Made by a program: the position numbers and the translations under genes. The notes below the pieces were generated by a model that saw nothing but the letters and a program-made list of their open reading frames with translations, was not told the DNA's origin and did no database searches. From an uncultured Victivallales bacterium (GTDB lineage: Bacteria; Verrucomicrobiota; Kiritimatiellia; UBA8416), in the NCBI GenBank assembly GCA_964576795.1, contig CAZNWT010000001.1, positions 56,697-120,696 on the forward strand: a stretch of 64,000 bases of DNA, in the 5' to 3' direction. Of this stretch, positions 24,951 through 33,952 are shown one piece after another. Numbering within the stretch: the stretch's first letter is position 1; every line of letters begins with the position of its first letter.

Positions 24951-25577
24951 TCACTCCGCTGAGTGAAGCGCCGGCAGCTCCAAATCCTCGGGGCGATCAA
25001 CATCGCTTAGGACAGGAAGCTTTGCCACACACAATCCCTCTGCAGCCGCAGCCACTTCGGTGTCGTGGCAGACTCTGCTTTCACCCCATGCGATGCCAGT
25101 GAATAGAGCCGCACACGGCTGTTTGAGGCCAATGAGATAATAGCCGCCATCGGCCGCTGGACCCAACACCACATCGTGCGATGCAAGAGCGGCATTCGCT
25201 TGAGCAAGAATTGCCGGGCTAAGCTCAGGACAATCGGTTCCGATGATAAGAAAAGAAACGCCGGATTCACAATGCTGCTCGCAGGCGTGATGCAAGCGCT
25301 CCCCAAGATTGCCCTCGCATTGCAGTTCGAATGCGATGCCCCGCCCCAACCATGATTGCATGGATTTCGTCGTTGCACCTGTAAAGCAGACAGAGAGGTG
25401 AACATCTTGTTTCTGACAGAACTCACGCGCAACGGCAACCGTATGCTCCGCCATCTGTTTGTGTAATGCCGCCGCACCCTCGGCCCCCAAGGCGGGGATC
25501 AACCGCGTTTTAGATCTACCCGCTTCTGGCCAGCGCATAAACACCACAAGATGTACCTGTTGCGAAACGTTCATCAT
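24951..25577 (-). CDS. TIGR04282/DUF2064-type transferase (CofC-like nucleotidyltransferase fold; rSAM/selenodomain-associated transferase 1)
   Basis: PEAGRSKTRL, QCEGNLGERL, IGTDCP, LGPAADGGYYLIGL, DVDRPED. Confidence 0.88.
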   Translation of the reverse strand: MMNVSQQVHLVVFMRWPEAGRSKTRLIPALGAEGAAALHKQMAEHTVAVAREFCQKQDVHLSVCFTGATTKSMQSWLGRGIAFELQCEGNLGERLHHACEQHCESGVSFLIIGTDCPELSPAILAQANAALASHDVVLGPAADGGYYLIGLKQPCAALFTGIAWGESRVCHDTEVAAAAEGLCVAKLPVLSDVDRPEDLELPALHSAE

Positions 25578-25647
25578 CCTACTTTCGCGTGTTTCGTAGT
25601 TGAACTACGCTTTTCAGGATCCTGCGCAGAACCTCTTGCAAAACACC

Positions 25648-25714
25648 TGCGGGGCAAGGGCGCCCCACCTTCCATTTCTGTTTGTTTTTGGAGGTGGGAC
25701 GCCCTCGTCCTGCA
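25648..25714. repeat. Inverted REP-like dimer, family B
   Basis: TGCGGGGCAAGGGCGCCCCACCT..CC paired with GGAGGTGGGACGCCCTCGTCCTGCA; same family as 39017-39092. Confidence 0.7.
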
Positions 25715-25728
25715 CATCTGCCAGAGTT

Positions 25729-27759
25729 TTACAGCGACTTTCCATAGTAGCGTTCATACATCGCGTGCGTATCGACCTCGCCCCACAATCTCCTAAAAAG
25801 ATAGGTTCCGACAAGTCTAATGATAAAAACCGCACGAACAACCTTGTGCTTCTGCCACCCTCGCAAAGATACACGAGCCAAACCAAACAGATGCACCGTA
25901 CGCCCCACCATGAGCAACCGCAGACTAAGTTCAACATCTTCCATCAATGGAATAGCAGGAAAGAGATTGTGCTCCATGACGACCTGTCGTCGGAAAAACT
26001 GCACCTGATCCCCAAAAGATACCGACAAGCAGGTTGCCCTAATATCGTTCAGGACTTCAACAATGCGAATGCCACCATCACCCCCATCAAAGGAGCAACC
26101 CAGGCTGCCACCAACCACGCCGGGATTCGCTTGCAACATGGCCAGCATTCGGTCCCATGACTCTGGTGGAACAACGGTATCGGCATGGACAATCGCAACC
26201 ACATCCCCCGATGCTCGCTGTAAAGCCGCATAGATCTGCCCGCCGCGTCCAACATGCTCAAGTCCGGCAACCACCACCATTGCCCCCGCCTTTTCGGCCA
26301 ATGCCAGCGTATCATCACGGGAGCCTCCATCAGAAACGAGAACCTCAGTGACAAGAGGATTGGACAGTAAAATTTCGCAGCACGCTGAGATGCGCTGCGC
26401 TTCGTTGATGACGGGAACAAGCACCGAAAGGGTTTTTGCAGGTGTATTGGCAGATGCGTTTCTGAGTCGCCGAATGCCAACCGCCCCCTCCCACGCCAAC
26501 AGGCCCAAGACGGGTATCCACTCAATGGCAAAGGCCAATGACGAAATCTCCCAAGCGCCTGTGAGCGCAAACGTCCGACACACAGTGAAATAGGCCCCGA
26601 TAGTGAGTGTTGCCACCAACCAGCCCCATACGGGCAAAACAACGGCAAACGGCAAAATCCAGCTTAGGTACCAGTAGTGCACCGTGGGCGACAACAGCAG
26701 CAATGCGCCAAAAGCCAAGAGTATTCCCGGCAAGGGATCTTTGTTGCGACAGCGCATCCACAGCGGCATAAGGCGGATATAGGCAAAACTCAAAACCCCA
26801 AAAAACGCCACTTTTACGATGACAGTCGCCGCCGTCATGGATCCCAACACACCGCGCAGCACACCGTGAATGGGACCGTTGAATGCAAACTCCGAGCCAA
26901 ATGCCAATAGACAGTGAAAAAGTTGACGGGGATCCAGCAAAACAATCGGAAGATAGGGCACAACCGCTGCAGCAACAGAGATCCAAGCGTAGCGCCAATT
27001 CTCGCGATTGATAAGAAACGGAAGCGCGAACACGGCAACATACTTCACTTGAACCGCAAGGCCTGCCATCAGGAATGCCCATACCCACCGCTTTCGGGTA
27101 TGACAGAGAACCGCACCGGTGAGCAAGGCCGCCTGGATAGCATCAAAATGCCCTTCCCCCGCAAAACTAAAAAGGACTAGCGGATTAAATGCATAGAGGA
27201 AAGCCCAACGCAAGGGCAGATGCCGCGCCCGCAAGAGCTCAAACAGGAACAAAATGGCGACAAGATCAAAGAGGATGACAACCCACTTTATTGCCAAAGG
27301 ATGGTACCATATGCGAGAGATGCCACTGAACAGCCCAAGCATGAGCGGGGGATATGCCGCCGGCATATTGGGATGATTGACATAAGCATGAAAGGGATCA
27401 TCCTTCGCAAGGCCGGACAACAGCGGTGCATCCGGGGCATAGGCATAGGGGCTATAACCTGCTGCCAAAACACGCCCCTCCCACAAATAGCGGTTGATAT
27501 CATCCGAAGGTGGATACGGCAGCATTGCGAGCCGTGTCAATACCGAGACAACGAGGATGAAAAGGATTGTCTTTCGAGAAGACAGCGCGCGCGGAAACAG
27601 AAACAGCAACGCCACCGCAGCAACCCACAGGAAAGCGTACAACACTACAATACCAACAAGGTTGCTGACAGGGGTCATTCGCGAAACAATCGCACACGCC
27701 ACCAGCATGCCTATGGACAGCACGAGCAAGATCAGAATGCGCAGTCTATCAGCTCTCAT
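25729..27759 (-). CDS. Fusion of a GT-C fold (GT87/DUF2029-like) polytopic glycosyltransferase and a C-terminal TIGR04283-type GT2 domain
   Basis: N-part: SDDINRYLWEG, YSPY, YPP, FNPL, GHFD, many TMs. C-part: VLVPVINE, SDGGSRDDT, VHADT, FGDQ, PLMEDVE. Confidence 0.85.
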   Translation of the reverse strand: MRADRLRILILLVLSIGMLVACAIVSRMTPVSNLVGIVVLYAFLWVAAVALLFLFPRALSSRKTILFILVVSVLTRLAMLPYPPSDDINRYLWEGRVLAAGYSPYAYAPDAPLLSGLAKDDPFHAYVNHPNMPAAYPPLMLGLFSGISRIWYHPLAIKWVVILFDLVAILFLFELLRARHLPLRWAFLYAFNPLVLFSFAGEGHFDAIQAALLTGAVLCHTRKRWVWAFLMAGLAVQVKYVAVFALPFLINRENWRYAWISVAAAVVPYLPIVLLDPRQLFHCLLAFGSEFAFNGPIHGVLRGVLGSMTAATVIVKVAFFGVLSFAYIRLMPLWMRCRNKDPLPGILLAFGALLLLSPTVHYWYLSWILPFAVVLPVWGWLVATLTIGAYFTVCRTFALTGAWEISSLAFAIEWIPVLGLLAWEGAVGIRRLRNASANTPAKTLSVLVPVINEAQRISACCEILLSNPLVTEVLVSDGGSRDDTLALAEKAGAMVVVAGLEHVGRGGQIYAALQRASGDVVAIVHADTVVPPESWDRMLAMLQANPGVVGGSLGCSFDGGDGGIRIVEVLNDIRATCLSVSFGDQVQFFRRQVVMEHNLFPAIPLMEDVELSLRLLMVGRTVHLFGLARVSLRGWQKHKVVRAVFIIRLVGTYLFRRLWGEVDTHAMYERYYGKSL

Positions 27760-29258
27760 CTTCTTGCAGGAATAAATGTTTGGCAGACTGTGAGCATACC
27801 AATGAAAAGAAAACCGGCGGCATAGATCGCCAAGAAAGGACTTACGATCAGTTTTCCCGCTAGGAGATATTGAACCAAAGTCCAGCAGCTGTAGAGGCCA
27901 AGTGCAATTTCAACCACAGAGACCCACGGCAATCGAATCGCATATTGCTTAACGATACGATCCCCCCGCTTTGGCGTCCTTACAAACTCGCTCTCTTTTC
28001 TGAATATGGCTTCGATAATCGCACGAGTGTTAGAAACTGCCATTCCGATACCGACGACCATCAAGAACGGAAGCAGAAGCACGCGCCGTTTCCACTTTGT
28101 ATGGATGGCACGTTGACTCACCATATAGAGTGTGCTGGGTGCCACCACCGAAAAGCACAGCGGCAGCGAAAGCAGACAGAAGAGAACACTGGCAGAACGA
28201 AATTCGGGCATCATATGCAGAACAGGAAGGGCCAAGAGCACAAGGGTTAGCATCATCGGATGCACCAGGTACCCCCCCATATGAAATAGCGCCTGCAGCT
28301 TCTTAAAAGGGGATACCTTGGCTGCCATCAGTCTGGGAAATAGTTTGAGCAACGTCTGCACAGATCCCTTAGCCCAGCGGAACTGTTGCCCACGAAAAGC
28401 ATTGATATCTTCAGGGAGTTCAGCGGGCACAACGACATGGGGCAGGTAGAGCGTCTTCCAACCCGCAAATTGAACACGGTAAGAGAGATCCAGATCCTCC
28501 GTAAGCGTTTCCCACTGCCACCCCCCCCCCTCAACAATAGCAGACTTTCGCCAGAGGCCAGCTGTACCATTGAAGTTCATAAAAAGGTCATTCCAAGATC
28601 TGGCGATCTGCTCGATAATAAAGTGCCCATCAATCCCCACCGCCTGCGCACGTGTCAAAAGGGAGGCTCTACGGTTTAAATGACCCCAGCGTGTCTGGAC
28701 AAATCCAAGTGTCGCGTCAGATGCAAAATAATGGGCGGTATCCAATAGATAGTTCTCCTCGGGCACAAAATCAGCGTCAAAGACCGCAATCACATCACCC
28801 CTACACGCCTCCAAGCCCTTTTGAAGGGCTCCAGCCTTGAACCCAATCCGATCCACCCGATGCAGCACCTTGATGTCATGCCCCTGCTCCAGCAACTCTG
28901 CAGCAACCCGCTCGACCTCCTTCAGGGTTTCATCCGTTGAATCGTCCAACACCTGAATTTCATGCCGCCCTTTAGGATAGCGCATGTTGCAAGCCGCCCG
29001 CATAACGCGCTCCGACACGTTCCGTTCGTTGAAAATGGCGATCTGCGTGGTGACAACAGGAAGCGCATCTCCCATTACCAGCACATCATCAGCGGTGATC
29101 CTACCGTCATGGTGAGCCTGAACCTCCCGACGACGACGCATAAAGAGGATCAGCATGACATAACAATTCAAGCCGTATAACAGCAATCCCACGGTGGCAA
29201 TGCCGTAAAACGTGAGAACCATAGGCTTCAGTGCCATTTCCATCATATTGAGTTCCAT
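27756..29258 (-). CDS. Processive GT2, cellulose synthase-like (CslA-type) membrane glycosyltransferase
   Basis: VLDDS, GFKAGAL, FDADF, TEDLDLS and QFRWAKG (D,D,D,QxxRW), flanked by TM helices. Confidence 0.92.
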   Translation of the reverse strand: MELNMMEMALKPMVLTFYGIATVGLLLYGLNCYVMLILFMRRRREVQAHHDGRITADDVLVMGDALPVVTTQIAIFNERNVSERVMRAACNMRYPKGRHEIQVLDDSTDETLKEVERVAAELLEQGHDIKVLHRVDRIGFKAGALQKGLEACRGDVIAVFDADFVPEENYLLDTAHYFASDATLGFVQTRWGHLNRRASLLTRAQAVGIDGHFIIEQIARSWNDLFMNFNGTAGLWRKSAIVEGGGWQWETLTEDLDLSYRVQFAGWKTLYLPHVVVPAELPEDINAFRGQQFRWAKGSVQTLLKLFPRLMAAKVSPFKKLQALFHMGGYLVHPMMLTLVLLALPVLHMMPEFRSASVLFCLLSLPLCFSVVAPSTLYMVSQRAIHTKWKRRVLLLPFLMVVGIGMAVSNTRAIIEAIFRKESEFVRTPKRGDRIVKQYAIRLPWVSVVEIALGLYSCWTLVQYLLAGKLIVSPFLAIYAAGFLFIGMLTVCQTFIPARR

Positions 29259-29302: not shown

Positions 29303-30088
29303 TCAGTTCTGGGCATTCAAGAGCCAGTCATAACCCAGTGTTTTAATCGTAGGCGATGCGTTCGCTTCTGACAGAAACGAGACTGTCTCATCGGATGCGT
29401 AGAGCCGAATCAAGTCAACCACGGAGCGCTTTCCCCCATCAGTGAAGTCATCACCGAACCATTTGAAGATCTTGCTAACGCGCAAGATATACCTTTTGCG
29501 CCCCAGCAAGCCACTTGAGACTTCCGTCTGAATGTGCTTAGGCGACGCCATGAATAGCCGCGTGGCACGATCAAGTTGAGACCCAGCACTCTCCCCACAA
29601 TAGGCCCAGGGCTGCAAATCGGGGCACCCAATGCTGGCACACACAATCGCAAAGTGGATGCGTGGCTCACGAAACACCTTTCGTAGAATCTCATGCTCGA
29701 TGGCATCCAAATTGTAAAGCGTATCCCCAACGCGCCAGCGCTTCTGCTTCCACGGCGCATCAATATCCCGAATGCTCTTAAGCGGCATATTGTCCACAAT
29801 CAACTTCACCGTGAAGGCATTATACGCATTGATCCAGAATGCGAGCTGGTGGTCACGCGACATCCCCGCAGGAGCGGCTTCAGACAGTTTCTCCAAATAG
29901 TCATCAAGAGCCGCTGGCGCATTTTTGATCGCTTCATAGTCCACAAGCCCCTTGCTTACATGTGCTTTCAGAAGCGCATCCCAACCATCGTGGAAACCAC
30001 CCGATCCGGATTCACCCTCTTCGCCGATCGCAGTGCCGACAAATGACAATAGGCCCGCAGCAACCATCATGCTCCAAATCTGTTTCAT
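29303..30088 (-). CDS. Exported DUF547 family protein
   Basis: Signal peptide, LAFWINAYNA, IEHEILR, EPRIHFAIVCASIGCP, YDWLLN; GAGGA RBS before the ATG at 30088. Confidence 0.88.
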   Translation of the reverse strand: MKQIWSMMVAAGLLSFVGTAIGEEGESGSGGFHDGWDALLKAHVSKGLVDYEAIKNAPAALDDYLEKLSEAAPAGMSRDHQLAFWINAYNAFTVKLIVDNMPLKSIRDIDAPWKQKRWRVGDTLYNLDAIEHEILRKVFREPRIHFAIVCASIGCPDLQPWAYCGESAGSQLDRATRLFMASPKHIQTEVSSGLLGRKRYILRVSKIFKWFGDDFTDGGKRSVVDLIRLYASDETVSFLSEANASPTIKTLGYDWLLNAQN

Positions 30089-30160
30089 ACCTGATCCTCT
30101 TCTTCGTAGATCGGACATCTTGTCCAATCGAACCCTTGGCAGACGGACAAAATGTCCGTC

Positions 30161-32632
30161 CTACTTCAAGTCTTGCGATATTTCTGGATGCCGTTTGACT
30201 TCATCATCAAGGCGTTCGCGAAGCTTTTGTTTTGGAAGACCCGCCGACCAGCCGCGAGCCAACGGAATATACGCCTTCTTGTAAACCACGTTATCAGGAT
30301 CCGATTGCCCCACAGAACCAAACGTCAAAACCTGCATAGGGCAATTCACGACGCAAGCACTGCAACGCACACATTCAACATCGTTCATAGGAACCCCACG
30401 ACTGGCATACCCCATAACATCAATACCCATATGGCACACTTTCGTGCAGATATTGCACGAAATGCACCGCTTTTTGTTTGCCATGATGCGATAGCGCGAG
30501 AATCGAGAATAGATGTGCATTAACGCCGCAAGCGGGCAGCCATACCGACACCAGATGCGGCCACCATAAAAGAAATAGACGCCAAGCCCGAGGACTCCAG
30601 CAAACACAACATCAATCACCAACTTGTAACTATACCATAGCGAACTGGCCACGACCGGTATCGCACAATGGGGATCCACCTTGTGACATAGCTTGTAAGG
30701 CATATATAGCAAGCCGCAGCCAATGGCAGCCCATAAAACCACTTGTCCAATATTTTCCATTCGTTTGGCAAGCGGTCCGTGTGGCGATAGCGTACGATAC
30801 TCATCACCCAGCGTCTCAGCCATCGCCCCACAGGAACAGATCCAGCCGCAATACGCGCCCTTGCCCCAGAAATAGACCAGCAAAAACAGAATACCAAAGG
30901 TCTGCACGAAGGGAAACCACGTCCAAAAGGCACTATTGCCGAACTCGTTGATGTTTAGCGGCCAAAACAGAATGAATGCAAATGAGCTCCATTTACCCGA
31001 TGGAAAGAGCTGCTCACGCAATCCGTCAGACAGCGCTCCAGCAATGAAACGGTCATACAGGAAAAACGGGATCACAAAAAGAAAGAGCGCTTGTATAACA
31101 ATCAGCGTCATCGTCTGTGTAATGATGTACGGTGTTGGTGTACGCTGCATACGGTAAATACCAAAAATCAAGATCGTAAGCGTATAGAACAGGGAGTAAT
31201 AATACGTGGGTGCCTCAACCCAAGCTGCATCCTGCATGAGTTGGCTCTGCATGTAGACCTTGAAGAACGTAATCCCGACGCCAATGAAGTAGCCATACTT
31301 GATCGTCTTCCAGATGGAGCCAAAATAACGTTCTCGCTCCCTAGCCATATCCCCCAGCATCGCGCCACCCGAAACGAGGAACACTACCGATCCTAGCCAA
31401 CCCAACAGAAAATTCAGAGAACCATACCAGGTTTGCCCCGCAAGCGACCAAGTCAAGCCCGCCCGCCAAGGCGCGGTGAGATAAGCCCATATCGCTGAAA
31501 TGGGATTCTCGGCACCAGCAAAGACATTCACGGCTCGTCCGGACTTCCCAAAGTAGAGCATCGTAAAGAAACTCAGTAGCGCGATCAGGCCAACCCACCA
31601 GATGCGACTCCGTTCACCCTCCATTGCAATGCGGGAACGCTTGAAAAATGCCACCGGAATCTCGGAGCCAATCAAAGCATACACCACATCATTAGGGAGG
31701 GTCTGTTCGCCTTCGGTGGTGGCAAGCACGATCTCCGTTTCCCGAATCTCCTTTACCGTACTTTTAAAGAACGGGTGAATCCGACCCTTCCTCACCGCTT
31801 CGGTAAATGCTGCGAAATTTTGTTCTTTCGGGCGAGAAAACGCAGGCTTGCGATAGGAGAGCGTCACTTGATTGCCGGCATCCGCCAGTGCCACTGCAGC
31901 CTCAAGCGCACTATCCCCACCGCCCACAACCAAAATATTCTGATCCTGATGTTCCCCCGGATCAACCAATCGCGTGAAGACTTTTGGGAAGTCCTCCCCC
32001 GGCACATTCAATCGCCGCGCATTGCCACTCTTTCCAATCGCAACAATCACTCGTAGCGCAATCGTTTCCCCATCCGCAGTCGTCTTCACGGCAAAAGCCC
32101 CACTGCGACCCGATATGTGCTTAACCGTCTCCCCTTCGAGCATTGGGATGTCATGCCCCTGAATATCCTGCTTCAACTCCTCGAGAAGTGTCTCTTTTGA
32201 GCCGTCATTAAAGACAAGAGCAGACTGCATAGGAGGATCTACCGGCGTCACATAGATGGGCTTTCCCTTTGGAAAATTCTGGATGGTGTTAAACGGCTGT
32301 GCAGCCTCAATCAGGAGCACGTGATACCCCAACGCTTGCGCACACAACGCTGCGGCCATTCCTGCCGGGCCCGCACCGATAATCACAAGATCATAGACAC
32401 CCTCCTGGCGACGCTTGCTCTCATCACGAAATTTCGCATCGGCATGTATCGCCTCTATCACGCCATAACCCGACTCGGCTGCGAGCTTGATCAACGGCAC
32501 CCCGGTTAGGTCACCCACACAGTAGATGCCCGGCACAGACGAGGCGTACCCCGATAGCTCCGGATACCGATCCACAGTACCCGTAGGATTTCCCTTCTGA
32601 AGCCACGGAAAATAGAAAGAAGGAATTTTCAT
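30161..32632 (-). CDS. FAD/NAD(P)-dependent oxidoreductase (TrxR-like, permuted) fused to a NapH/RdxA-like membrane polyferredoxin
   Basis: N-terminal VPGIYCVGD, GAGPAG, GGGDSA, then about 9-10 TM segments, CGWICSCG, CRYGCP, and two CxxCxxCxxxC 4Fe-4S motifs. Confidence 0.85.
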   Translation of the reverse strand: MKIPSFYFPWLQKGNPTGTVDRYPELSGYASSVPGIYCVGDLTGVPLIKLAAESGYGVIEAIHADAKFRDESKRRQEGVYDLVIIGAGPAGMAAALCAQALGYHVLLIEAAQPFNTIQNFPKGKPIYVTPVDPPMQSALVFNDGSKETLLEELKQDIQGHDIPMLEGETVKHISGRSGAFAVKTTADGETIALRVIVAIGKSGNARRLNVPGEDFPKVFTRLVDPGEHQDQNILVVGGGDSALEAAVALADAGNQVTLSYRKPAFSRPKEQNFAAFTEAVRKGRIHPFFKSTVKEIRETEIVLATTEGEQTLPNDVVYALIGSEIPVAFFKRSRIAMEGERSRIWWVGLIALLSFFTMLYFGKSGRAVNVFAGAENPISAIWAYLTAPWRAGLTWSLAGQTWYGSLNFLLGWLGSVVFLVSGGAMLGDMARERERYFGSIWKTIKYGYFIGVGITFFKVYMQSQLMQDAAWVEAPTYYYSLFYTLTILIFGIYRMQRTPTPYIITQTMTLIVIQALFLFVIPFFLYDRFIAGALSDGLREQLFPSGKWSSFAFILFWPLNINEFGNSAFWTWFPFVQTFGILFLLVYFWGKGAYCGWICSCGAMAETLGDEYRTLSPHGPLAKRMENIGQVVLWAAIGCGLLYMPYKLCHKVDPHCAIPVVASSLWYSYKLVIDVVFAGVLGLGVYFFYGGRIWCRYGCPLAALMHIYSRFSRYRIMANKKRCISCNICTKVCHMGIDVMGYASRGVPMNDVECVRCSACVVNCPMQVLTFGSVGQSDPDNVVYKKAYIPLARGWSAGLPKQKLRERLDDEVKRHPEISQDLK

Positions 32633-32831: not shown

Positions 32832-33080
32832 ATGACAAGACAAGATATCGTAAATCAACTACGCGAAACCATGCGGACATCCTCACCAGACCCCATCGAT
32901 TGGGACATCGTCACAGAAGAAACTACCATTGGAACTCTGGGGTTTGATTCACTCTCGATTCTGGACTTGATTTATGACGTACAGCAGGCTTTCGGTATTG
33001 ATTTCGAAGCCGAGGAACTGGTCAACATCAATACTGTAGGTGAACTTGCCGACTTCCTTGAGGAAACGCTCAAGGCATGA
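32832..33080 (+). CDS. Acyl carrier protein
   Basis: LGFDSLSILDL phosphopantetheine motif, acidic 82-aa protein. Confidence 0.9.
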   Translation: MTRQDIVNQLRETMRTSSPDPIDWDIVTEETTIGTLGFDSLSILDLIYDVQQAFGIDFEAEELVNINTVGELADFLEETLKA

Positions 33081-33952
33081 AGAAACTGCGGCATCTCGTT
33101 GAGTACGCTGCCGTCCGCACGTTTCTAATGCTTGTCGATGCGCTCTCCCTTCGGGCTGCCGAACTGTTGGCCTCCGGAATTGCGGATATCTGGTTTTCAG
33201 CAGCGTCTCGACGGCGCGGTATCACCTGCGACAACGTCAGACGCAGCGGCATCGCAACTGATGAGATGAAGGTGCGGCGTATTGCCAAGGCGTCCTTTAG
33301 ACACTTCGCTTGCCTGATCATCGACTCTCTCAAATCCGACCGCTACTTGACGCCAGAAACGTGGCAAGAGCACATAAGTCTGGATGTGCCGCCAGAGACC
33401 CTGGCGCTCCTTAAACAACCCGATCAGGGGCTGATTCTCATTTCCGGACACCTTGGGAACTGGGAAATAGCAGCCCAGGCTCTCTCTTTTATCAAACCCG
33501 TCGTTGGTATCACACGGGACATGAACAACCCCTACACGAATGCCCTCATGAAGAAACGCAAACCCCGCAATGCGTTCACGCTTACGCCCAAACACAGTGC
33601 CAATATGGGGCGGCTCCTCAAGACGCTGAGGTCCGGAAATATTCTAGCGCTTCTGACCGACCAGCACGCACAACACGGCATGATGGTTGATTTCTTTGGC
33701 ATCTCCGCCAGCACACACACTTCACATGCCATGTTGCATTTGATTACAAAAACGCCCATGTGTTTTGGGTACTGCGTGAAGACAGGCCCAATGCAATTCA
33801 TGCTAAAGGCATCCCTCCCCATCACCGTCCCCCGAACAGGCAAACGCGACGAAGACGTAAGAGGCATTCTTGAACAACTCTCTCGCGAACTCGAAACAGC
33901 CATCCGGGCCTACCCCGAACAATACCTCTGGGCTCACCGACGCTGGCGGTAA
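33077..33952 (+). CDS. Lipid A late acyltransferase, LpxL/HtrB family
   Basis: GHLGNWE, LTDQH, VDFFG, YPEQYLWAHRRWR; ATGA overlap with the ACP gene. Confidence 0.9.
   Translation: MKKLRHLVEYAAVRTFLMLVDALSLRAAELLASGIADIWFSAASRRRGITCDNVRRSGIATDEMKVRRIAKASFRHFACLIIDSLKSDRYLTPETWQEHISLDVPPETLALLKQPDQGLILISGHLGNWEIAAQALSFIKPVVGITRDMNNPYTNALMKKRKPRNAFTLTPKHSANMGRLLKTLRSGNILALLTDQHAQHGMMVDFFGISASTHTSHAMLHLITKTPMCFGYCVKTGPMQFMLKASLPITVPRTGKRDEDVRGILEQLSRELETAIRAYPEQYLWAHRRWR

Follow-up and report, generated by a model that had tools for sequence, protein, structure and literature searches.

Can a flavoenzyme of the thioredoxin reductase (TrxR) type carry its FAD-binding GD motif ahead of the rest of its fold, and where would the electrons go when the enzyme runs directly into a membrane domain? 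Both questions are raised by the open reading frame at positions 30161-32632 (minus strand) of the window, that is, the whole 64,000-nucleotide stretch from an uncultured Victivallales bacterium analyzed here. The frame encodes an 823-aa protein in which the GD motif, VPGIYCVGDLTG, occupies residues 33-44 (window 32501-32536), N-terminal to both GAGPAG (residues 86-91; window 32360-32377) and GGGDSA (residues 237-242; window 31907-31924). The NAD(P)H domain ends with YALIGSEIP (residues 318-326), and the first transmembrane helix (TM1) begins at about residue 343 according to hydropathy and the full-length model. A first-pass annotation had placed the GD motif at residues ~33-45, before the first GAGPAG, and had the NAD(P)H domain running into TM helices; our mapping agrees on both points. 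To our knowledge, descriptions of two-dinucleotide-binding-domain flavoproteins (TrxR, GR, LipDH, FNR, YpdA) give one fixed motif order. The protein and its downstream neighbor comprise the following features:

32570-32632, minus strand: family-specific N-terminal extension, residues 1-21 (Y7..W10-L-Q12, two short helices)
32432-32569, minus strand: displaced FAD-binding beta-alpha unit that carries the GD motif, residues 22-67 (alignment, profile, model)
32399-32431, minus strand: linker between the ancestral C- and N-termini, residues 68-78 (hypervariable in the alignment)
31610-32398, minus strand: part 1 of the FAD Rossmann domain, NAD(P)H domain, and return strands to the FAD domain, residues 79-341 (Pyr_redox_3, TIGR04018, VIA-align)
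30497-31609, minus strand: eight-helix membrane domain, residues 342-712 (model helices, hydropathy, Fer4_5/TIGR02163)
30317-30496, minus strand: ferredoxin-type domain with two [4Fe-4S] motifs, residues 713-772 (Fer4_9/Fer4_7/Fer4_10, invariant Cys)
30161-30316, minus strand: helical tail, residues 773-823 plus stop (weak conservation)
29303-30127, minus strand: downstream gene for a secreted DUF547 protein (PF04784)

Circular permutation of the flavin module

Alignment to canonical relatives, profile matches of the N-terminal segment, and structural alignments agree that the flavin module is circularly permuted, as the first reading of the sequence had proposed. P0171, the nearest relative of canonical order, aligns to the query non-collinearly, with query residues 79-341 matching its residues 1-265 and query residues 22-67 matching its residues 265-311, an exact junction; the canonical-order protein P0222 shows the same pattern. 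Against the PDB, a profile of the GD segment matched 149 sequences at E ≤ 1 (best E, 6e-8), and all of the best 60 of these 149 matches fell in the GD region located after the NAD(P)H domain, including that of GR, TryR, LipDH, TrxR, and GltD. Conversely, family models begin at the core and stop short of their ends: Pyr_redox_3 covers query residues 83-337 with profile positions 1-281 of 305, YpdA TIGR04018 covers residues 81-342 with positions 1-266 of 316 (141.1 bits, below the cut-off of 339.9), and the low-Mr TrxR model TIGR01292 is matched over positions 1-249 of 300 only (75.6 bits, below the cut-off of 343). The predicted models (pLDDT 85.9 and 87.7, pTM 0.83) gave the same picture, with residues 77-340 aligning to residues 1 to ~268 of YpdA/TrxR chains at Z 19-24 and the canonical C-terminal ~50 residues left unpaired. 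Foldseek and VIA-align are sequential aligners, by construction unable to align permuted segments; the spatial equivalence of residues 22-67 to the canonical GD unit is accordingly predicted from homology and model confidence. A canonical C-terminal GD motif, the finding that would speak for ordinary topology, was not present, as TM1 follows directly after residue 341.

The permuted order is a real, family-wide trait. Among 270 collected relatives, the GD unit precedes the core in 255, follows it in three, and stands on both sides in none. Moreover, the N-terminal segment is among the best-conserved parts of the family (Y7, W10, P24, G40, D41, L42, P46, L47, and A51 are invariant in 37 sequences), which argues that the motif order is not due to chance. 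An origin of the GD segment in a miscalled start codon or in a fragment of an upstream gene was considered and rejected, since homologues from many phyla share the start and the conserved residues. The dimeric state of TrxR-like enzymes makes the sequence by itself compatible with a GD-like segment swapped to a second subunit, or one left as a vestige of partial duplication, with FAD bound without it, but this is very improbable given the invariance of G40, D41, P46, L47, and A51, the fact that none of the 270 relatives has another GD unit following the core, the modeling of the segment within the monomer at pLDDT 93-97, and the exact placement of its homologue at the junction in canonical relatives.

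In the model, the GD unit forms a strand (residues 36-41) and a helix (residues 45-64) and is followed by the linker, the sole hypervariable and indel-rich part of the flavin domain, with insertions of up to ~25 residues in other members. Landmarks of the core, besides GAGPAG and GGGDSA, are E109, Y260-R261, and R267-P268-K269. Within the N-terminal extension, Y7 and W10 are invariant and L11/Q12 almost so in the family alignment; its pLDDT rises from below 50 in a model of the flavin domain alone to 60-81 in the full-length model, which suggests packing on the membrane or Fe-S part. The C-terminal tail shows no consensus beyond residue ~775 (pLDDT 55-82).

The permuted module forms a large clade, with 540 cluster representatives (50% identity, E ≤ 1e-30) in several architectures, and its fusion to the membrane domain was found in at least 585 species genomes. 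P0171, P0206, and P0222 are uncharacterized canonical-order sister proteins in which the flavin domain precedes other domains and Fe-S motifs. They resemble the query in their core (38-41% identity) and share G-x-PLIK-x-A-x-x-x-G after the GD motif, but their GD unit follows the core. In a core-only tree these three were nested within the permuted radiation, so the family history may include a reversion to canonical order. This is a natural clade with a permuted order of the two-dinucleotide-binding-domain fold, and the permutation would explain how the module can be plugged into a membrane domain by its C-terminus or placed behind ferredoxin or cytochrome domains by its N-terminus; a module that can be plugged in at either end offers flavoenzyme engineers a design lesson from nature.

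Members currently carry generic names ('NAD(P)-binding domain-containing protein', '4Fe-4S binding protein', 'NosR regulator') because current family models catch only a truncated match. For this protein we found neither a solved structure nor a family model of its own, and no paper. Searches of full-text literature on permuted TrxR/YpdA or flavoprotein-NapH fusions, and of literature on bacterial DUF547 and TIGR04282/TIGR04283, returned nothing on it, and neither flavin nor thioredoxin-reductase folds are mentioned in the main text of the CIRPIN circular-permutation survey. The protein thus represents a widespread membrane redox enzyme family for which no prior study was found.

Cysteines and relatives of the flavin module

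There is no CxxC in the flavin domain, as had been noted at first reading for the part before GGGDSA. The region ahead of that motif reads KVFTRLVDPGEH, and residues 1-342 contain only two cysteines, C38 and C97, neither of which is conserved in the family. Lacking redox-active cysteines, the flavin module cannot be a disulfide reductase.

In both sequence and fold, the top match was Bdr/YpdA, a putative bacillithiol disulfide reductase (7a76, 7a7b), at 26-28% identity and Z 21.9-23.6 over ~260 residues (VIA-align to 7a7b: Z 21.9, model residues 77-340). The two share a two-Rossmann FAD/NADPH architecture, the lack of the TrxR CxxC, and an Arg/Lys-rich NADPH motif; they differ in that the query GD unit lies before the core rather than after it and in the fusion of the query to a membrane and Fe-S part. 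The likeness to YpdA that was first proposed therefore stands at the level of the fold but does not extend to the candidate active site. Both solved Bdr chains carry GGGPCG where the query has GAGPAG, and the Cys in this first glycine-rich loop is what we take to be the proposed active-site thiol of YpdA/Bdr. Despite the rank of 7a76 and 7a7b among the matches, a membrane-anchored YpdA/Bdr-like or TrxR-like low-molecular-weight thiol/disulfide reductase deserves almost no weight, with no CxxC, no Cys in the GxGxxG loop, only the unconserved C38 and C97 in the domain, and HMM scores far under the cut-offs (141 versus 340 and 76 versus 343).

Low-Mr TrxRs have the same two-Rossmann FAD/NADPH fold (Z ~18-19 to 1tde, 1f6m, 3f8d, and others; VIA-align, residues 77-340), but the query is without the redox-active CxxC of their NADPH domain. 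TrxR-type ferredoxin-NADP+ reductases (FNRs) share the fold and likewise have no redox cysteines (Z 17-18 to 3lzw, 6gar, 3ab1, and 5ygq; compared examples were Bacillus subtilis YumC 3lzw, Bacillus cereus FNR 6gar, and Chlorobaculum tepidum 3ab1). Their transfer of electrons from NADPH through FAD to an iron-sulfur protein is the job that the query fusion would imply. These FNRs are soluble and canonical in order, with a C-terminal extension over the flavin, whereas the query has its ferredoxin in cis, a permuted order, and a C-terminus that leads into the membrane.

Membrane and iron-sulfur domains and the direction of electron flow

The membrane domain comprises eight model helices (residues 343-364, 398-431, 440-464, 473-497, 501-533, 568-589, 627-652, and 660-684), the last four of which are NapH-like. 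Two motifs, C595-x3-C599-S-C601 and C695-x3-C699-P, are predicted to be cytoplasmic; the first (C595-GWI-C599-S-C601) has no Pro and carries an extra invariant Cys, and the second (C695-RYG-C699-P) fits CX3CP. The family models Fer4_5 and NapH/MauN TIGR02163 match residues 582-771 (TIGR02163 at 45.5 bits, below its cut-off of 213), and NosR NF046105 matches residues 584-762 only (35.9 bits, cut-off 1000). Downstream, Fer4_9/Fer4_7/Fer4_10 match residues 716-768, where two [4Fe-4S] motifs are formed by C723/726/729/733 (CISCNICTKVC(H)) and C754/757/760/764-P (CVRCSACVVNCP). All five membrane-domain motif cysteines and all eight [4Fe-4S]-motif cysteines are invariant in 37 sequences, giving 13 invariant cysteines in total. 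The fusion to a membrane polyferredoxin recognized in the first-pass annotation is borne out by the Fer4_5 match, the weak NapH/NosR matches, and the two [4Fe-4S] motifs. From the even helix count, the flavin module, the Cys motifs, and the ferredoxin domain would all lie on the cytoplasmic side. When the full-length model was used for a wide PDB search, in which large models hide single domains, all matches were to flavoproteins and none to the membrane domain.

With NapH, MauN, NosR, and RdhC the query shares a C-terminal 2x[4Fe-4S] domain, and its last four TM helices, with their two predicted cytoplasmic motifs of the CX3C(P) kind, partly resemble the module of those proteins (PMC5928378). 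The query differs from them in four extra TM helices, in the third invariant Cys and missing Pro of the first motif, and in the cytoplasmic-type NAD(P)H flavoprotein fused in front, and from NosR/RdhC also in having no periplasmic FMN domain. No nap, nos, or rdh genes were found near the query gene, and there is no nap/mau gene context.

We give a probability of about 0.65 to the reading that the protein is a membrane flavo-iron-sulfur oxidoreductase transferring electrons from NADPH via FAD and Fe-S to the membrane, as part of an envelope sugar-transfer system. Such an enzyme would combine a permuted cytoplasmic two-Rossmann FAD/NAD(P)H module with the YpdA, low-Mr TrxR, and TrxR-type FNR fold, an eight-helix membrane domain that is similar to the NapH/NosR/RdhC module in its final four helices and its two cytoplasmic Cys motifs, and a cytoplasmic 2x[4Fe-4S] ferredoxin domain, and would most likely act as a TrxR-type FNR with its ferredoxin fused in cis. 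NADPH as the donor is predicted from a single feature, the Arg/Lys-rich YR..RPK after the second Rossmann motif. Electrons would pass from FAD to the [4Fe-4S] clusters and the Cys motifs at the membrane surface, and from there to a membrane-embedded acceptor, which may be a quinone or else a substrate that is lipid-linked or bound to a partner. The transfer of flavin electrons to the Fe-S clusters, as also suggested in the first-pass annotation, is the most reasonable reading of the architecture; other architectures, in which 2x[4Fe-4S] domains are joined directly to the permuted module, support flavin-to-Fe-S transfer as the general job of the module. The permutation would free the C-terminus of the module for direct entry into TM1 and, in the sister architectures, the N-terminus to bear a ferredoxin domain.

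Flow in the opposite direction is unlikely, though it fares best among the competing readings. Here the NapH-like module would oxidize quinol and pass electrons through Fe-S and flavin to NADP+ or a cytoplasmic substrate, or would balance the quinone and NADPH pools. NapH/NosR/RdhC modules serve quinol-linked electron transfer and are described as quinol-oxidizing entry points, opposite to the direction we propose (PMC5928378), and the invariant polar and aromatic residues of the membrane domain (Y483, R494, Y502, Q506, Q514, W570, and Q577) are compatible with a quinone site. However, uncoupled reduction of NADP+ by menaquinol or ubiquinol is energetically uphill, NADPH is the donor for TrxR-type FNRs and YpdA, and the gene neighbors are biosynthetic rather than respiratory.

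Genomic neighborhood and candidate partners

The query gene is surrounded by genes for DUF547, glycosyltransferases (GTs), DUF2064, an ACP, and an LpxL-like protein; the sugar-transfer genes beside it encode a DUF2064/TIGR04282 nucleotidyltransferase-like protein and a TIGR04283 GT2 fused to GT-C. Neighbors of the DUF547, GT, and DUF2064 kinds occur within 6 kb of the homologue at 42 of 84 loci. DUF547 is the most constant of the family's neighbors, lying ≤6 kb away at 35 of the 84 loci, often abutting, and abutting the homologue at five of six full-length loci from the query's phylum. A signal-peptide-like N-terminus was present in 26 of 27 aligned DUF547 partners (the start of the remaining row, L059, is uncertain), and H145, C150, and C155-P156 are invariant (H...CX4CP). 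The DUF547 protein is thus a likely functional partner. Under the proposed NADPH-to-membrane flow, the enzyme and this secreted Cys-motif protein would operate within an envelope sugar-transfer system that, in other genomes, is tied to ArsS/ArsM. The enzyme is a candidate redox component of TIGR04282/TIGR04283 (arsenosugar/MTX-like) envelope sugar systems and may offer a first handle on DUF547. At half of the loci with homologues, among them every Leptospira locus, no sugar-transfer or DUF547 neighbors lie within 6 kb; the physiological acceptor may therefore vary from lineage to lineage.

The link to ArsS suggests another recipient, namely that the protein is a dedicated membrane-anchored, NADPH-driven reductase that takes the place of a flavodoxin/ferredoxin reductase system and feeds a low-potential electron to ArsS, a radical SAM enzyme, or to some other Fe-S enzyme encoded in the cluster. 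An Opitutaceae locus encodes both an ArsM-like methyltransferase and ArsS (TIGR04167, 451 bits), the latter three genes away from the homologue; an ArsS-like gene is found within 6 kb at 15 of the 84 loci; and the redox centers all face the cytoplasm, where ArsS acts. We regard this as somewhat less probable than reversed flow. The query's genome (92% complete) has no ArsS above cut-off (best score 52.7 bits versus 300), most linked loci have none within 6 kb, the secreted DUF547 protein, and not ArsS, is the family's most constant partner, and a soluble electron donor needs no eight-helix membrane domain.

Equally doubtful is a two-component trans-envelope reductase, in which the flavo-Fe-S protein and the secreted DUF547 protein would carry out NADPH-driven, thiol-based periplasmic reduction of 5-deoxy-5-(methylthio or dimethylarsinoyl)-pentose glycoconjugates. 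FAD, Fe-S, and a quinone-type site in the membrane would relay the electrons, with a logic as in MsrPQ or DsbD; the glycoconjugates would be made by the products of the adjoining DUF2064/GT2/GT-C genes (elsewhere ArsS/ArsM); and the reduction might, for example, hold the S or As center reduced. If true, it would give DUF547 a first function and supply the missing redox step in arsenosugar and MTX-like pathways. The NADPH-to-membrane reading, with all of its predicted redox centers cytoplasmic, gives no route to periplasmic DUF547. Prediction of a complex between the membrane domain (residues 342-712) and mature DUF547 returned a score of 0.01, which is no answer either way.

Neighbors at the Leptospira and Opitutaceae loci were annotated by ORF and Pfam. 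Those in Leptospira encode a SpoIIE phosphatase, a histidine kinase, a glycerate-kinase-like MOFRL protein, and a P-type ATPase, and gave no functional lead. Saprophytic Leptospira are cultured hosts of the family, and the ideas set out above are therefore open to experiment.

Relocation of the FAD-binding unit

The features of the ORF, which couples a flavin domain to a membrane polyferredoxin, are as follows.

30161-32632, minus strand: target ORF, 823 residues
Residues 33-44: GD motif, VPGIYCVGDLTG
Residues 86-91: GAGPAG
Residues 237-242: GGGDSA
Residues 318-326: YALIGSEIP, with a hydrophobic helix from ~343
Residues 343-364, 398-431, 440-464 and 473-497: modelled transmembrane (TM) helices 1-4
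Residues 501-533, 568-589, 627-652 and 660-684: modelled TM helices 5-8
C595-x3-C599-S-C601: first Cys motif, predicted cytoplasmic side
C695-x3-C699-P: second Cys motif, predicted cytoplasmic side
C723/726/729/733 and C754/757/760/764: ferredoxin domain, predicted cytoplasmic side

These positions bear out the first-pass annotation, which had placed the GD motif ahead of the first GAGPAG and had the NAD(P)H domain end at YALIGSEIP and run into TM helices. Its central claim was a circular permutation, in which the GD unit, the last FAD-binding piece of canonical TrxR-like flavoproteins, comes first. Four independent lines, namely pairwise alignments, profiles, structure models and alignment anatomy, agree in supporting it.

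Among 1.84 billion cluster representatives, the closest canonical-order relatives found aligned non-collinearly with the target and with an exact junction. Target residues 79-341 matched residues 1-265 of the uncharacterised protein P0171 (41% identity, E 5e-46) and residues 22-67 matched its residues 265-311 (40% identity, E 4e-6); P0222 behaved in the same way. Pfam Pyr_redox_3 and Pyr_redox_2 covered target 80-337, reaching only profile position 281/305, while the NCBIfam models for YpdA (target 81-342, profile 1-266/316; 141 bits against a cut-off of 340) and TrxR (target 80-337, profile 1-249/300) ended similarly, and in all cases the GD-containing C-terminal part of the profile was absent from the collinear match. 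An HMM of the N-terminal segment (30 sequences, 79 positions) matched 149 distinct PDB sequences at E<=1 (best 6e-8), and the 60 best, all inspected, matched at the GD beta-alpha unit C-terminal to the NAD(P)H domain, as in glutathione reductase (299-345), trypanothione reductase (310-359), lipoamide dehydrogenase (~300-348), TrxR (295-340) and GltD (405-449).

AlphaFold2 models of residues 1-360 (pLDDT 85.9) and of the full-length protein (pLDDT 87.7, pTM 0.83) both placed a strand at 36-41 and a helix at 45-64, with pLDDT 93-97 there. The putative bacillithiol disulfide reductases Bdr/YpdA (7a76, 7a7b) were the top fold matches in Foldseek and VIA-align (Z 21.9-23.6, 26-28% identity); TrxRs and TrxR-type ferredoxin-NADP+ reductases (FNRs) ranked next (Z 17-19). 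The pairing always joined model residues 77-340 to chain residues 1-~268, leaving the last ~50 canonical residues and the first ~76 of the model unaligned, the expected outcome because sequential aligners were given a permuted pair. Profile alignment and comparison with TrxR and YpdA, both proposed in the first-pass annotation, thus came out in favour of the permutation. No solved structure collinear with the N-terminal segment was found by PDB sequence and structure searches. From homology and model confidence, residues 22-67 would be spatially equivalent to the canonical GD unit.

In the family alignment, residues ~65-78 are the sole hypervariable, indel-rich stretch of the flavin domain, and this stretch coincides exactly with the expected join of the ancestral C- and N-termini. 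The GD unit lay before the core (target residues ~79-341) in 255 of 270 collected relatives, after it in 3, and went undetected in 12, mostly fragments; none of the 270 carried one in both places, with a second unit after the core.

Redox anatomy and proposed electron path

The flavin domain retains the motifs that FAD and NAD(P)H binding would call for, namely the GxGxxG glycines (G86, G88, G91) followed by E109, the 'ATG-like' GKSG (200-203), GGGDSA (237-242) with E244, and the relocated G40-D41; the residues numbered here are invariant across 37 full-length sequences. Past the second Rossmann strand, a basic cluster (Y260-R261...R267-P268-K269) suggests NADPH at the level of motifs. The annotation had also seen no CxxC, and indeed the TrxR CxxC was not found in residues 1-342, whose only cysteines, C38 and C97, are unconserved. 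The first glycine loop reads GAGPAG, whereas both Bdr structures have GGGPCG, so that the YpdA loop Cys is missing too, which excludes disulfide reductase activity of both the TrxR and the YpdA type.

The proposed fusion to a membrane polyferredoxin was confirmed by eight TM helices in the full-length model, with hydropathy as further evidence, by Fer4_5 (CX3CP-type) and 4Fe-4S dicluster matches in the C-terminal third, and by the 13 cysteines of the Cys motifs and ferredoxin domain, all invariant in the 37 sequences. Given the even helix count and a cytoplasmic NAD(P)H domain, both Cys motifs and the ferredoxin domain are predicted to be cytoplasmic. This layout resembles that of the NapH/NosR/RdhC module, for which four membrane segments, two CX3CP motifs of unsettled ligand role, and electron transfer linked to quinol are described (PMC5928378); the second Cys motif of the target fits, and the first lacks the Pro and has an additional invariant Cys. 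The C-terminal third also showed weak similarity to NapH/MauN and NosR. The protein does not belong to the TrxR, YpdA, NapH or NosR families, as judged by curated scores, catalytic cysteines, the order of motifs and the gene context. At the fold level the protein resembles a TrxR-type FNR fused to its own ferredoxin and a NapH-like membrane module.

The protein is most likely a self-contained electron-input device. Its anatomy, permutation and conservation are established, whereas its cofactors, donor, direction and acceptor are inferred as follows. NADPH would reduce FAD, which in turn would pass electrons to the [4Fe-4S] clusters of the same chain, much as TrxR-type FNR does with ferredoxin. 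From these clusters and the Cys motifs, at the surface of the membrane, electrons would move on to an acceptor embedded in it: quinone, or else a substrate that is lipid-linked or bound to a partner. Architecturally the permutation is sensible, since the chain now leaves the flavin domain where the return strands of the NADPH domain end and can run directly into TM1. The N-terminus is left free as well, and sister proteins attach a ferredoxin domain there.

Distribution of the permuted module

The clade of the permuted module is large: searching with target residues 1-345 found 5291 cluster representatives at E<=1e-3, 540 of them at E<=1e-30, and among the best 150 only a few were not collinear with the target from residue ~24-30 onward. 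The module occurs alone (~320-370 aa), directly behind a 2x[4Fe-4S] domain, behind multihaem cytochrome c and Fer4, sometimes with FHA domains, or in the membrane fusion. P0138, P0180, P0181 and P0230 (up to 1417 aa) carry it behind multihaem cytochrome c domains and 2x[4Fe-4S], some with N-terminal FHA domains.

In a maximum likelihood tree of the core region, rooted on TrxB-like proteins of the window's own genome and with sampling biased towards the query, the membrane-fusion family formed one clade (42 rows, SH-aLRT 96). Three canonical-order proteins, P0171, P0206 and P0222, nested inside the permuted radiation (114-row clade, support 98), a moderately supported placement that hints at reversion by re-permutation but may instead reflect limited resolution of the tree. 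The membrane fusion was present in at least 585 species-representative genomes, from Fibrobacterota, Lentisphaeria and other Verrucomicrobiota, Ignavibacteria, Planctomycetota, Acidobacteriota, Gemmatimonadota, Desulfobacterota and cultured Leptospira; in the window's own phylum its occurrence was patchy, with 8 genomes among the 151 sampled. Database names were generic or wrong ('NAD(P)-binding domain-containing protein', '4Fe-4S binding protein', 'NosR/NirI regulator'), and searches of the literature, the PDB and family models found neither a paper nor a solved structure nor a dedicated model for the family. This analysis contributes evidence for an exact junction, shows how large the permuted clade is and how widely its architectures vary, and links the family to DUF547 and ArsS. 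At locus L100 (G071:C3, 8632-10005), from a genome of the same class, a ~458-aa ORF matched only the permuted flavin part (profile 23-343) and could represent either a split gene or a soluble version.

Gene neighbourhood

Four same-strand genes lie downstream of the target.

29303-30127, minus strand: DUF547 protein with signal peptide
27756-29258, minus strand: GT2, 500 aa
25729-27759, minus strand: GT-C(GT87)/GT2(TIGR04283) fusion
24951-25577, minus strand: DUF2064 (TIGR04282)

Within 6 kb of the homologue at 84 homologous loci, we found DUF547 at 35, often abutting, a GT-C/GT2-like gene at 30, DUF2064 at 23 and an ArsS-like radical SAM gene at 15; DUF547 abutted in 5 of 6 full-length loci of the window's own phylum. 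At the Leptospira loci, DUF547, GT-C/GT2, DUF2064 and ArsS were all absent within that distance. A complete-looking cluster in an Opitutaceae MAG (L059, 3146-14160, same contig as L095) runs ArsS (TIGR04167, 451 bits), DUF6503, DUF547, homologue, GT2, GT-C/GT2, ArsM-like methyltransferase and DUF2064. The window itself holds the TIGR04282 and TIGR04283 'arsenosugar biosynthesis' transferase pair (24951-29258, minus strand), and no ArsS above the cut-off was found in its genome (92% complete; best match 52.7 bits against 300). The GT2, GT-C and DUF2064 trio appears to parallel the mycobacterial methylthioxylose capping genes, in which Rv0539 (mtxS) makes the lipid-linked sugar donor (PMC12088412). 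From this neighbourhood, the target probably provides the redox step in a system that decorates the envelope with sugars.

A signal-peptide-like N-terminus was seen in 26 of 27 aligned DUF547 partners, and all 27 share an invariant His...C-A-x-x-x-C-P (H145, C150, C155-P156; H...CX4CP), which may form a periplasmic redox or metal site. The redox centres of the target are predicted to face the cytoplasm, whereas DUF547 is predicted to be periplasmic. At L003 (10409-11179, soil metagenome contig) the stop of the homologue overlaps an ORF of 256 aa that has neither a Pfam match nor similarity to DUF547. Divergent from the target (32832-33952, plus strand) lie a stand-alone acyl carrier protein and an LpxL-like lipid A acyltransferase, the stop of the former overlapping the start of the latter.
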